Source: an uncultured Spirochaetota bacterium
GTDB lineage: Bacteria > Spirochaetota > Spirochaetia > SZUA-6 > DRHE01
DNA length: 64,000 bases
Direction: 5' to 3'
Assembly (NCBI GenBank): GCA_963736785.1
Contig: CAVTQG010000061.1
Location: 105,918 to 169,917 of the forward strand
Part shown: one piece after another, positions 54,729-58,665 of the stretch
Position numbering within the stretch: the stretch's first letter is position 1
Layout: the number at the start of each line of letters is the position of its first letter
The notes under the pieces: generated by a model
What the model was told of the DNA's origin: nothing
What the model saw: only the letters and a program-made list of their open reading frames with translations
Database searches by the model: none
Made by a program: the position numbers and the translations under genes

Positions 54729-55000
54729 TTTGAGAACCATAGCCTTTTTCCCGGCGCTGCTCAAGGGTCCGGCGAGCTCGCCCGGGCCGCTCAATCCACC
54801 CGCAGCCGGTACTCACCTTGCCCACCCCCAGGGCTTTGTTCGCCGTGGTGGCCAGTTCGCGCAGCGTTTCAGACGGACTTGGGAATGGTGCGGTGCGCAA
54901 CGTTTGCAGAGAGCCACCAGAGTAGGACGCTCAGACGGTCTGGGCATCCTCAAGGGACGGGTATCATGGGCTTTGCCCTCGCACCGATGGGTTGCTTATC

Positions 55001-55399
55001 CTACCCGGAGGACCACCGGGCGCTTATGCCGGAATGGCGCAACTGGATGAACCGGGCGTTGTAATAACGCGCCGATTGCGTGGAGACAACCCTGAGCATG
55101 ACCCGCCTTAGCTCGCCGGCCCGTCTGCTCAGCTCCCTTCGTTCCTCCGGCCGCAAGCCCACGAATCGGAAGACCGCTGGGCTGTCCTGGTCCTCGAGCA
55201 TGACCTGGTGCTTGTTCACCACGATTCTTCCCCGGATCTCCACCACCTGCCCTTTCTGGTACAAAGGCACATGCCGTTCGGGCCTTTTGGGCCTTTCGGG
55301 GCTGCGAACCGCGAAGAAAAAGCTTTCGCAGCCGGCAAGACCGAGGGTCAGCGCTATGCCAGCAATGAGCAGGATGCTGCGTTTTGCGTTCTTGTGCAT
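55001..55399 (-). CDS. Putative lipoprotein
   Basis: MHKNAKRSILLIAGIALTLGLAG-C lipobox. Confidence 0.65.
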   Translation of the reverse strand: MHKNAKRSILLIAGIALTLGLAGCESFFFAVRSPERPKRPERHVPLYQKGQVVEIRGRIVVNKHQVMLEDQDSPAVFRFVGLRPEERRELSRRAGELRRVMLRVVSTQSARYYNARFIQLRHSGISARWSSG

Positions 55400-55682
55400 G
55401 TCGTATCTCCTGTATTTCCTATGCCCGCTGTTCGCCGAAACTCTGCGCTCCCCTATTCTCGGGAGTCGGAATGTTAGCAGCCGCCGTTTTCGCCAGAATA
55501 ACGAAACTACCGGCAGGACCAAGCGCCACCGGCGCCAGAACCCAATCCGCTGACAGCGAGCATCTTATCATGGGAGGAAGAACCGGGGTTTGCGAAAGCA
55601 ACAGGTACGGATTCTTGGTTTCCTTCATTCAGCCTGCTCGATCCTTTCATATGAATTGCCTGAGGCCCGGAGCGCCGTAATC

Positions 55683-55724
55683 ATAATAGTAAAACGCCCG
55701 CGGCTGTATGTTCGGTGGCACACT
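55683..55724 (-). promoter_or_regulatory. Putative Crp-type activated promoter (degenerate copy)
   Basis: TGTTCGGTGGCACACT (12/16 match to the other sites) with TATTAT -10 at nearly the same spacing. Confidence 0.4.
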
Positions 55725-55850
55725 GCCTTCGAACAGCGCTGAGCGGCGGCTGCGGGAGGCTCGTTGGGGGATCGACCTGGCGGGCAATAGCAAAGACATA
55801 TAGCTCGCAGGCGACGTTCTCGTTCCACGCTGCGAGCTAGAAGTCTCTAG

Positions 55851-56000
55851 TTAGAAACGCAGTCTCGGAATAATAGCCCACAAGCCCACAATAATCAAAT
55901 AAATACCCACAGTGTAGCGCAGAAACCTGGGATATATGAGCACGAGGATTCCAAAAATAAGAGTTATAATACCCCATATCAGACCAATTGGTTGCCACAT
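55851..56000 (-). CDS. DUF3096-like small membrane protein (49 aa)
   Basis: MWQPIGLIWGIITLIFGILVLIYPRFLRYTVGIYLIIVGLWAII; GGAG RBS upstream. Confidence 0.7.
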   Translation of the reverse strand: MWQPIGLIWGIITLIFGILVLIYPRFLRYTVGIYLIIVGLWAIIPRLRF

Positions 56001-56118
56001 AATATCTTCCACTCCCTTCTTATATAGATATTCTCCCGTAGACCCCGACCGATGACGAATCCTTCTAACCCGGAGAATTGCTTCCTGCCTGCGAGCCCTC
56101 CTATCGGATCGAGTTCTA

Positions 56119-56277
56119 CTATCTGCGCCTGCCGTAGCGCATGACCAGCCAGACAACCACGAGGATCAGCCCGACTACGAGCGCGACGTAGACAAAGCCG
56201 CCCAGCGTGGTCGAGGTGACAAGTCCCAGAAGCCACAATACCAAGAGGATGATGCCGATGATCAGAAGTATTTGCAT
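56119..56277 (-). CDS. lmo0937/DUF5670-like small membrane protein (52 aa, absent from the ORF track)
   Basis: MQILLIIGIILLVLWLLGLVTSTTLGGFVYVALVVGLILVVVWLVMRYGRRR*; AAGGAG RBS. Confidence 0.75.
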   Translation of the reverse strand: MQILLIIGIILLVLWLLGLVTSTTLGGFVYVALVVGLILVVVWLVMRYGRRR

Positions 56278-56433
56278 GCTAAAACTCCTTCCCCCTTCCG
56301 TCGAAAGCCATTCCGCGACCTTTTTATAGTGCTACATCCAGAACAGAACCGAGGTACCCAACGGCACCTCATGTCCCTCCTTTCCTCCTCTCCTGTCTGG
56401 ACTCGCCCGATAAGATCCGGAGGGCCGTACTCA

Positions 56434-56492
56434 GTATCCACAGCTTGTATTATGCGAGAAATCCCGAACGCGGTCTGTGCGGTAGCGCACGT
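56434..56492 (-). promoter_or_regulatory. Class-II-type promoter with palindromic operator, copy A
   Basis: TGTGCG-GTAG-CGCACG centred about 41.5 nt upstream of the predicted +1; CATAAT -10; gapless homology to 58401-58459. Confidence 0.7.
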
Positions 56493-56717
56493 ACTGATTC
56501 GGGCGCCAGGGGAAGAGAGCATGGGGAAGGTGATCCGCATTCGCAGGGGGGTCGCATAGTCATCAAGCCCAAAGGCTGTGTAACCGTGTGTTGGTCGAGT
56601 GTGACTGAGCTGGTTTGCAGAGCCGCCGTTGAGCCGACCTGCCGGAAGCTTGACAGATTCATGGCCCCCGATTATGCTCAAGCTGCTATCCTTACCGGAC
56701 GCTTTTGGAGGTTGCCC

Positions 56718-57455
56718 ATGTGCAGCATGCCCAGCCAACCAAAACCGCCTGATTTTCTTCAGAACCACTTGCTCAGGGTCCTGCCAGATCCTGAACGCGA
56801 GCGCCTGATGCGCCACATGGCACTGGTCCCGATGCCGCTCGGTAAGGCCCTGTACGAGTCCGGGGACCGGTTGAGTCACGTCTATTTCCCCACCACCGCC
56901 ATCGTGTCCCTGCTGTTCGTGATGGAGAATGGCGCGTCCGCCGAAATTGCCGTGGTCGGCAACGAGGGTATTGTAGGCATCGCCCTATTCATGGGTGGCG
57001 AAACCACGCCGAATCGGGCCGTGGTGCAGAGCGCGGGCAGCGCCTATCGGCTGGACGGACAGTTGCTCAAGCAGGAGTTCGAGCGCTCTAGGGCGGTGCA
57101 GCATCTGTTGCTGCGCTACACCCTGGCCCTGCTGAGCCAGATGGCGCAGACCGCCGTCTGCAATCGGCACCATACGGTAGACCAGCAACTCTGTCGTTGG
57201 CTGCTGCTCAGTCTGGACCGGTTGCCCGCCAACGAGTTGAGCATGACCCAGGAACTGATCGCCAACATGCTGGGAGTACGGCGCGAGGGGGTTACCGAGG
57301 CCGCCGGAAAATTGCAGGCTGCCGGATTGATTCGGTACAGCCGCGGCCGCATCACCGTACTGGATCGACCGGGCCTGGAAGCGCGGGTTTGCGAGTGCTA
57401 CGAGGTTGTCAGGAATGAGTTCCTCCGCCTGCTGCCCGATGTGATCGCGATGTGA
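56718..57455 (+). CDS. Crp/Fnr-family transcriptional regulator
   Basis: NHLL, VYFPTT, EIAVVGNEG, MTQELIANMLGVRREGVTEAAG HTH, CECY; GGAGG RBS. Confidence 0.93.
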   Translation: MCSMPSQPKPPDFLQNHLLRVLPDPERERLMRHMALVPMPLGKALYESGDRLSHVYFPTTAIVSLLFVMENGASAEIAVVGNEGIVGIALFMGGETTPNRAVVQSAGSAYRLDGQLLKQEFERSRAVQHLLLRYTLALLSQMAQTAVCNRHHTVDQQLCRWLLLSLDRLPANELSMTQELIANMLGVRREGVTEAAGKLQAAGLIRYSRGRITVLDRPGLEARVCECYEVVRNEFLRLLPDVIAM

Positions 57456-57574
57456 CTGAGGGCATGCGCATCGTATTCTGTCACGATGCCTCCCCTATCC
57501 GCGTATGGGGCTTCGGCGCCGAGGGGAAAGCCCATCCTCAACGCCGTTTATGAGTCCATCGAACTTTTTGCGAC

Positions 57575-58360
57575 CTAGCGCGTTTTCCAGTAGAACTCCG
57601 GCTCCAGCATGTAGCTTCGGCCGGGGGCGAAGTCGAAGTCCGCGGAAAAGGAGAACCCGTTAGAGGTGATACGCAGATTATGCCTGCCCGCTGGTAGACT
57701 GAAGCTGAGAGTGCTGTAGGACTGCCCGTCCACGAACAACCGGATCTGGTCTCTGTTGTCCCGGTCTCTGTTGTCCCGGTCCCTGTTGTCCCGGTCGTCC
57801 AGGAAGCCCGGGGGGATGACGACCCGCACCGACACGGAGTTGGCTTGCAGCCGGGCGTTCACCGCCGTATTGCCCGCCACGCTCACCGCGGTCAGATAGT
57901 CCTGGTAGCCGGGGGCAGACACGCGCACCAAGTAGTTGCCCCTGTCCACCTTCATGGAGGCAGGGGCCGTGCCCATCGGGGTGTTATTCACGAACACCTG
58001 GGCGCCGGCCACGTTGGCGGTGACCCTCAGGTTGTAGCGCCCGCGCGGCGGCCGCTGCTGCGAAATCCCGCCTTCCGGATCCAGGTTCACACGTAGGTTC
58101 AGCGGGTTGGAAGTCATGTTGATGATCGTTCCGAAGGACTGGAAGTTATCCATAGCAACCTGGACCCGGTAGTTTCCGGGCCGCAGCAGGGCGGAGAAGA
58201 TTGGCTTAGTGTAGCCTGCCAACTTGCCGTTCAGGTAGACTCTGGCGCCGGTGACGTTGCAGAGGATGGAAAAGGCCCCCCGCGCCTGGGCGAACGCCGG
58301 CGCGACGCTCGCGGCCAGGAACGCCGCCAGGAGAAGTTACAGAACCATTCTTTTCTTCAT
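57575..58360 (-). pseudogene. PEGA-domain exported protein with in-frame TAA at codon 8
   Basis: MKKRMVL*LLLAAFLAASVAPAFAQ signal peptide; PEGA repeats NVTGARVYLNG and NVAGAQVFVN, VSAPGYQDY. Confidence 0.7.
57748..57792. repeat. 15-bp tandem repeat x3 (encodes RDNRD repeats)
   Basis: GGTCYCTGTTGTCCC three times, in frame. Confidence 0.85.
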
Positions 58361-58400
58361 AGCCTTCTTTCATCAACCGGAATCGTGAGTGCCGCACTTA

Positions 58401-58459
58401 GCATCCACAGCTCGAATTTTACGAAAAAATTCCAACGCGCTCTGTGCGGTAGCGCACGT
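58401..58459 (-). promoter_or_regulatory. Class-II-type promoter with palindromic operator, copy B
   Basis: Identical TCTGTGCGGTAGCGCACGT with a TAAAAT -10 at the same spacing as copy A. Confidence 0.7.
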
Positions 58460-58665
58460 TGCGTTGTCCTAGCATGTATTAAAATAAAATAGAAACGACT
58501 GTTAGATGACACCTTGGAGGCGAAAGCGAACAAAACCAGGGAAGATGCCAAGACTGCGTGTGAAGACTCCCGGGGGCATCTCGCAATGGTAACTTGCAAT
58601 GTATTACCGGCCATTCACTCGAGGTCAGCAATATGCCTCAAAAAATTTTTCAAGGGGGGACGAAC

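Follow-up and report, generated by a model that had tools for sequence, protein, structure and literature searches.

Several regulators of the CRP/FNR superfamily with described operators are the nearest known counterparts of the system considered here, which consists of a Crp/Fnr-subfamily gene and the palindromic boxes lying on both sides of it in a 64,000-nt stretch of DNA (hereafter the window; positions 105,918 to 169,917 of contig CAVTQG010000061.1, assembly GCA_963736785.1) from an uncultured soil or sediment spirochaete. Escherichia coli CRP, for instance at the class II promoter galP1, recognizes TGTGA-N6-TCACA, with Arg180 and Glu181 reading the G2 and G4 pairs of TGTGA (PMC10187061). 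The box of FNR and Anr is TTGAT-N4-ATCAA, the motif of the low-oxygen lxa island of Burkholderia cenocepacia is TGA-N6-TCA (PMC3721108), and Clr from Sinorhizobium meliloti binds HGTYHC-N4-GRWACA (PMC10187061). The motif reported for RedB of Rhodobacter capsulatus is non-palindromic and rich in AT, and RedB controls energy metabolism globally (PMC9603854).

The regulator of the window (56718–57455, plus strand; 245 aa) and its boxes resemble the E. coli CRP system in the protein fold (Foldseek template-modelling (TM) score 0.6–0.7), the TGTG-N8-CACA spacing, the equivalents of R180 and E181 and the location of the site 29 nt from the −10 element, i.e. at −41.5. They differ from it in sequence (about 18% identity), in half-site positions 5–6, which are CG here and A-N in TGTGA-N6-TCACA, in the recognition helix (RREGVTE versus RETVGR), in the presence of one more helix at the C-terminus, which bears an invariant CxCY, and in the genes concerned, which are local stress genes as opposed to a catabolism regulon. 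With FNR/Anr and the lxa island the locus shares a Crp/Fnr regulator encoded inside a stress-gene island, a box before each gene and the layout of a 14-bp palindrome, but it has no N-terminal cysteine cluster, its box is GTGCG-N4-CGCAC instead of TTGAT-N4-ATCAA, and small membrane proteins take the place of the universal stress proteins and anaerobic metabolism of lxa. Clr is likewise a CRP-family protein in which a changed recognition helix has made the half-site diverge after GT, yet its helix is RPKVNR, its box is of the TGTTAC type, and it depends on cAMP/cGMP and controls an unrelated regulon. RedB is similar in being a recently named, widespread and previously unstudied CRP/FNR subgroup, and is set apart, by description only, by an unlike motif and regulon. 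The box is thus distinct from those of CRP and FNR, as the initial annotation of the locus had it, and differs from the lxa and Clr boxes as well. Full-text literature searches found no paper describing this box or this Crp subfamily; the predicted DNA specificity and regulon are new, whereas the mechanism itself, class II activation by a CRP/FNR dimer, is well known.

Association of the box with the Crp subfamily

It is quite likely that the Crp/Fnr-subfamily protein whose gene lies between the copies of the palindrome uses the latter as its operator and would act on it in the class II manner. By computation, the box co-occurs with the regulator, stands at a recurrent spacing from a −10 element and precedes a recurrent gene set. 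Two sets of genomes were compared. One comprised 80 loci (634 kb) from species genomes other than the host, each carrying this Crp subfamily and together spanning Spirochaetota, Beta- and Gammaproteobacteria, including cultured Paraburkholderia, Variovorax, Methylomonas, Thiorhodococcus and Pandoraea. The other comprised 31 related spirochaete genomes, five of which possess a crp gene of the subfamily and 26 of which lack it; G001 and G003 are congeners of the window genome, and G019 and G029 are further relatives.

A matrix iterated from exact-core matches in the 80 loci yielded, from 247 sites, the 20-bp palindromic consensus TcTGT[G/A/T]CG-cTAg-CG[C/T/A]ACAgA; of the 80 loci, 25 contain the exact core, mostly within the same flanking sequence. 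The reading in the initial annotation depended on the motif being found in other carriers of the subfamily, and there it is strongly enriched, with 251 matrix sites in the 634 kb versus four in shuffled DNA. When all 5-mer palindromes with a spacing of 0–10 were counted without a seed in 115 regions upstream of crp, GTGCG-N4-CGCAC ranked first (10 regions against 0.1 expected) and the runners-up were shifted registers of the same palindrome. A count of 4-mer palindromes over whole loci was discarded because it was dominated by coding-sequence bias, and upstream regions were used instead. Among the related spirochaetes, the exact 15-mer TGTGCGSTASCGCAC occurs in three of the five crp-positive genomes and in none of the 26 crp-negative ones.

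The host genome has 3.97 Mb and 67% guanine plus cytosine (GC) in an assembly that is about 70% complete. The bare GTGCG-N4-CGCAC core matches it exactly at 17 positions and, with at most one mismatch, occurs seven times in the window where 5.6 occurrences are expected; since the bare core is no rarity in GC-rich DNA, its significance must rest on the extended motif and on the other genomes. The family matrix singles out two predicted strong operators, both on the minus strand: box 1 (GGTCTGTGCGGTAGCGCACGTACT, 56472–56495) with 26.4 bits, the top site of the genome, and box 2 (GCTCTGTGCGGTAGCGCACGTTGC, 58439–58462) with 23.3 bits, the second. They alone exceed the maximum of the shuffled genome (18.3 bits); the best other genomic site scores 15.8, and the whole-genome scan with the matrix detected no extra regulon sites above the shuffled background. 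These two boxes flank the sole Crp/Fnr gene found by tblastn in the assembly.

The boxes are parts of a larger repeat. The initial annotation noted an ungapped alignment of 59 bp between 56434–56492 and 58401–58459, which is real and extends, according to a repeat search, to a direct repeat of 78 nt without gaps and with 79% identity (56415–56492 and 58382–58459, both read on the minus strand). The shared box TCTGTGCGGTAGCGCACGT is identical at 19 of 19 nt; outside it, 43 of 59 positions match (73%; binomial p = 1.1e-12), and the outer edge of the box forms a sharp boundary to the similarity. Because identity continues beyond the box over the 78 nt, the repeated unit is the whole minus-strand promoter cassette, in which a 22-nt spacer separates the box from a −10 element and some 35 nt of leader follow. 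The −10 elements are CATAAT in copy 1 (56449–56454) and TAAAAT in copy 2 (58416–58421), the same hexamers as predicted initially, and each starts 29 nt from the centre of its box. Searches with blastn and nhmmer detected no cassette copies in the genome beyond these two.

Promoter geometry

The hexamer TAnnnT was sought on both sides of 180 strong sites, i.e. in 360 oriented flanks. Its start is exactly 29 nt away from the box centre in 65 flanks and 30 nt away in a further 16, the other offsets averaging about 2.5 of the 360. With the predicted −10 hexamer placed at −12 to −7, the distance of 29 nt puts the box centre at −41.5, which is the class II position, so the placement proposed for the window holds both there and throughout the family. 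At least one side of the box has a −10 element at this distance in about 65% of the family sites, and both sides have one in 12 of 178; box 2 is a two-sided site of this kind, with TAAAAT at 58416–58421 on the minus strand and TAAAAT at 58480–58485 on the plus strand.

When the sites are oriented by the −10 element, the proximal half reads ACAGAC and the distal half is looser. The GAC of the proximal half coincides with positions 3–5 of a −35 hexamer, the −35 position in the class II arrangement reading CAGACn. Both window boxes carry the ACAGA(C/G) half on the minus-strand side, which supports the promoter direction assigned in the initial annotation. The crp gene itself is arranged differently: no class II −10 element faces it, and it has instead a near-consensus sigma-70-type promoter, TTGACA-17-TATGCT (56650–56678, plus strand; 10 of 12 matches), with a homologous TTGTCA-17-TATATT promoter before the crp gene of the congener G001.

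The regulator protein

The protein belongs to the CRP/FNR superfamily, with Pfam matches to the cNMP_binding domain (PF00027, 1.1e-8; 35.4 bits with a cut-off of 27.5) and to HTH_Crp_2 (PF13545, 2.4e-16), and its predicted operator is of the CRP/FNR type, with two 5-bp half-sites 4 bp apart. The AlphaFold2 model has a mean predicted local distance difference test (pLDDT) value of 89.5 and matches GlxR, Mycobacterium tuberculosis CRP and FNR in Foldseek (TM 0.73–0.79) at 15–20% sequence identity; the best match by sequence in the PDB (E = 5e-8) is confined to the helix-turn-helix. There are at least 8,000 database homologues, the best of which are 80–92% identical and the named ones of which come from Spirochaetota, Anaerolineales and Gammaproteobacteria. 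Subfamily proteins are 80–85% identical across phyla.

The recognition helix is RREGVTE, as read initially. Its R-E-G-V-T-E aligns with RETVNK of GlxR and thus with R180-E-T-V-G-R185 of CRP, so that the equivalents of R180 and E181 are retained and the position of R185 is occupied by Glu. This fits a box that keeps TGTG and then continues with CG, the contact being presumed. RREGVTE is the commonest helix (60 of 118 copies); proteobacterial islands often encode additional paralogues, whose helix is RRVGVTK or RRSGVTE. A correspondence between helix type and box variant was considered and dropped, as loci with RREGVTE only use GTGCG, GTACG and GTTCG alike and there is no clean helix/box split. 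Loci with RRSGVTE, which has Ser at the E181 equivalent, may disfavour GTGCG in the small sample available.

Residues C148, H152, C225, C227 and Y228 (the last three forming C225-x-C227-Y228) are invariant across copies down to 36% identity. In the model, C148 and H152 lie in the hinge after the dimer helix and C225 and C227 at the start of the extra C-terminal helix (226–238). Speculatively, this Cys3-His set could be a metal or redox switch, the protein then being something other than a cAMP sensor. The counterparts of the residues that bind the cAMP phosphate in CRP (E72, R82 and S83), read from the sequence as GNEG...NRAV, keep Glu and Arg and have Ala for Ser83. The protein does not fall into any of three described groups. 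It is not CRP proper, having R-E-G-V-T-E and not RETVGR in the helix and C-G in the box where CRP has A-N. It is not FNR, in which an N-terminal Cys cluster and a central Cys hold a [4Fe-4S] cluster and the helix is E-x-x-S-R, since it lacks the N-terminal Cys cluster, its sole N-terminal cysteine, C2, is conserved in 2% of the copies, and the box differs. Nor is it NtcA, with 27.3 bits against the TIGR03697 cut-off of 244.95 and an NtcA box of GTA-N8-TAC.

Predicted target genes in the window

The operon behind box 1 is a well-supported predicted target. It contains genes on the minus strand for two small membrane proteins, one of the DUF5670 (lmo0937) family (56119–56277, 52 aa; PF18919, 7.6e-7) and, second, one of the DUF3096 family (55851–56000, 49 aa; PF11295, 4.3e-9). 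Homologues of the former adjoin the same crp gene in loci L003, L013, L018, L035, L039 and L069 and in G001 and G019, and homologues of the latter are located near crp in L032, L036, L059 and L072 and again in G001 and G019. A 17-bp inverted repeat directly after the DUF3096 stop codon (55794–55846, minus strand) is the probable operon terminator. Another terminator-like hairpin is located within the leader of the operon (56350–56371, minus strand). The fold of this leader is no better than that of shuffled sequences (z = −0.76), and with a value of +1.03 for the other of the two long leaders there is no evidence for structured RNA in them; an Rfam scan of 55000–59500 gave nothing above noise.

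A PEGA-domain secreted protein (57575–58360, minus strand; Pfam PEGA, 1.3e-25 with an in-frame TAA read through) is encoded behind box 2. Its membership of the predicted regulon is specific to this lineage and goes back to promoter duplication; no PEGA gene occupies the corresponding place in G001. Three tandem 15-nt units in the gene (57748–57796) encode a DNRDR repeat (DDRDNRDRDNRDRDNRD).

On the opposite side of box 2 there is a gene (58666–59118, plus strand) whose 150-aa product has a signal peptide and, at the C-terminus, a membrane helix; it has homologues in the relatives and no assigned family. This secreted protein is probably also a target, and the TAAAAT at 58480–58485, at 29 nt from the box 2 centre, may belong to a second class II promoter that diverges from the first and is directed towards the 150-aa gene.

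A third box, in the initial annotation a weaker copy preceding a lipoprotein gene, is present on the minus strand at 55705–55728 (core GTTCGGTGGCACAC at 55710–55723), with TATTAT (55683–55688) 28 nt from its centre, although its score of 14.0 bits is at background level. The gene behind it codes for a 133-aa lipoprotein (55001–55402, minus strand) with an LAGC lipobox and no Pfam match. Its orthologue in the congener G003 is 77% identical and has upstream a box of 15.2 bits with a perfect CGCACAGAC proximal half, which aligns with box 3 of the window, and the lipoprotein is possibly a target through this conserved weak box. As for the regulon claimed initially, the DUF5670–DUF3096 part is thus well supported, the PEGA gene is interrupted and lineage-specific, and the lipoprotein has a weak box; the list had left out the 150-aa protein, whose gene is linked to a box in both G001 and G029.

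No related locus contains a homologue of either orf36 (56265–56372) or orf69 (55422–55628), and these two further reading frames are probably not genes. On contig C5 of the assembly (1750–2950), four small membrane proteins are encoded in a paralogous cluster, copies of DUF5670 and DUF3096 among them; the DUF3096 copy is 84% identical, and the cluster is preceded by a TTGACA-17-TATACT promoter and lacks a Crp box.

Locus organization in related genomes

The locus of G001 comprises, in this order, DUF3096, DUF5670, box, crp, box and the 150-aa gene, with no PEGA gene; the homologue of the 150-aa protein is 89% identical to that of the window. The first box keeps CATAAC, and the ATG of DUF5670 follows 7 nt later, which makes the leader of about 165–171 nt in the window lineage-specific. 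The second box is inverted compared to the window, scores 25.7 bits, is located 29 nt from CACAAT and directly precedes the 150-aa gene. The crp orthologue of G001 (locus L090, contig C97, 4819–5555; 94–96% identical) is split over frames, being either frameshifted or misassembled, and both boxes are intact despite this.

G029 has a 27.4-bit box followed on the same strand by genes for a 63-aa membrane protein, a 112-aa coiled-coil protein and a homologue of the 150-aa protein (80% identical), and these three open reading frames (ORFs) may form an operon. The coiled-coil ORF is intact there (L091:6371–6709), whereas the window keeps a 46-nt remnant of it (58507–58552, plus strand; 85% identity by blastn to L091:6487–6532), which we take as the mark of a deletion or replacement in the window lineage. 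In the window genome, a copy of the box-1 cassette and a PEGA gene took the place of what lay upstream of the 150-aa gene.

In G019 the box, a tiny hydrophobic ORF, DUF5670, DUF3096 and crp are all on one strand. The tiny ORF (L092, contig C55, 6491–6553, minus strand) codes for 20 aa, purely hydrophobic (MGLLAILGVVLIVLIVVILI), and has a good ribosome-binding site. These layouts indicate that the core module in spirochaetes is made up of crp, DUF5670–DUF3096 and the 150-aa protein, with the lipoprotein peripheral.

The module lies in a stretch of lower GC content (about 55.2–61.5 kb of the window; 50–60% compared with 65–70% elsewhere), which joins it to toxin-antitoxin cassettes delimited by tRNA tails, and the whole stretch 55200–61500 looks horizontally acquired. 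At the DNA level crp is 75–83% identical to spirochaete and gammaproteobacterial (Thiorhodococcus) copies, with about 82% both to spirochaetes and to Chromatiales, and no flanking DNA is conserved between the window crp and L058, L003 and other copies. Such nucleotide identity across phyla suggests either transfer or unusually strong constraint. The low GC content, the toxin-antitoxin neighbourhood and the patchy distribution make it probable that the module was acquired horizontally, and the identity of about 82% to both groups, taken with the patchy distribution, also points to horizontal transfer.

Proposed mechanism and alternative explanations

In the proposed mechanism, a dimer of the regulator would occupy the box, whose centre is at about −41.5, the flank proximal to the promoter, ACAGAC, would double as a partial −35 element by its GAC, and the bound dimer would recruit RNA polymerase like a class II CRP/FNR activator. 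Box 1 would drive the DUF5670–DUF3096 operon and the duplicated cassette the PEGA gene, now carrying a stop; box 2 may act in addition on the opposite strand, at the gene of the 150-aa envelope protein, and box 3 may serve the lipoprotein. With crp presumably transcribed from its own sigma-70 promoter, the whole would form a self-contained local regulon.

A number of observations weigh against this mechanism. Among the 178 family sites, 62 have no −10 element at the class II distance on either side, and 40 of the 50 boxes upstream of crp orthologues have no class II −10 element facing crp, so there must be further modes of action, for instance repression or class I activation. In the window, the CATAAT of box 1 deviates from TAnnnT, the leader after this box is unusually long and missing from the closest relative, G001, and box 3 falls within the genomic background. 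The PEGA gene has its in-frame TAA at codon 8 (58337–58339) within a signal peptide that is otherwise perfect, reading MKKRMVL, the stop and LLLAAFLAAS (LLLAAFLAASVAPAFAQA after the stop); the paralogue on contig C38 encodes Phe at this codon. The stop may mean that the gene is a pseudogene, may be a variant within the population or may stem from misassembly, and because of it the gene may be dead. Finally, binding by the regulator, activation and the signal are all matters that we infer from sequence.

The boxes upstream of crp are also what gives some ground to the view that the regulator binds the box but mainly represses, or is dual, the −35 region being occluded until a signal releases it. 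The box does overlap the −35 position, and box 1 of G001 is centred at about −48.5 relative to the sigma-70 promoter of crp, a non-activating position. We regard this as unlikely, since of TTGACA the target promoters contain only the GAC supplied by the box flank and not the TT, and the exact phasing of 29 nt to the −10 element is a signature of class II activation for which repression has no need. The duplication by itself might be viewed as a mere recombination scar flanking crp and PEGA, with no regulatory role in the host genome, given that the 78-nt cassettes are paralogous, the PEGA gene is interrupted and the locus is rearranged compared to G001 and G029. The box is, however, the best-conserved part of the cassette, agrees with a consensus drawn from 80 other genomes, stands at the family-typical distance from the −10 element and precedes DUF5670 in G001 and G019 as well, which makes a scar most improbable. 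Scarcely more credible is recognition of the palindrome by some DNA-binding protein other than the adjacent Crp: the assignment to this Crp is deduced, but the box strictly co-occurs with the subfamily across phyla, the exact 15-mer is missing from the crp-negative relatives, the 5-N4-5 (TGTG-N8-CACA) geometry is of the CRP-family dimer type, and no other regulator gene is common to the loci.

Family-wide gene set

The first ORFs behind the family sites were clustered and the clusters named by Pfam. Recurrent downstream genes are crp itself and those coding for CsbD, BON, DUF3309, DUF1328, DUF3096 and DUF5670 proteins, the transglycosylase-associated (YeaQ/YmgE) family, glycine-zipper lipoproteins, OmpA-like proteins, DUF4398, DUF2333, fasciclin, phospholipase D-type proteins, fatty-acid desaturases, PAS histidine kinases and GGDEF cyclases. 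Most such families are typical of general or envelope stress regulons, for example those of RpoS in E. coli and EcfG in Alphaproteobacteria. It is reasonable to suggest from this gene content that the regulator–box pair controls small envelope proteins of the general-stress type throughout the family.

We put forward with considerable doubt the broader idea that the subfamily moves horizontally and serves as the master switch of a response of the general-stress kind, one working without RpoS or EcfG. It would act across Proteobacteria, Spirochaetota and other phyla, would control CsbD, BON, YeaQ, DUF1328, DUF3309, DUF3096 and DUF5670 proteins, and would sense its signal through the invariant Cys3-His metal or redox site linking the hinge to the extra C-terminal helix, and not through a cyclic nucleotide.

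CsbD, BON/OsmY, YeaQ/YmgE, DUF1328, DUF3309, DUF3096 and lmo0937/DUF5670 proteins are ubiquitous and poorly understood, and to our knowledge the regulation of small stress proteins is largely unknown beyond the RpoS, SigB and EcfG systems. A portable regulator with a well-defined operator offers a direct experimental handle on them in cultured carriers such as Paraburkholderia, Variovorax and Methylomonas. The pair represents a natural respecification within the CRP family, with R185 changed to Glu and TGTGA to TGTGCG, and the window shows the growth of a regulon in miniature, a whole cassette of box, −10 element and leader having been copied before a new gene.

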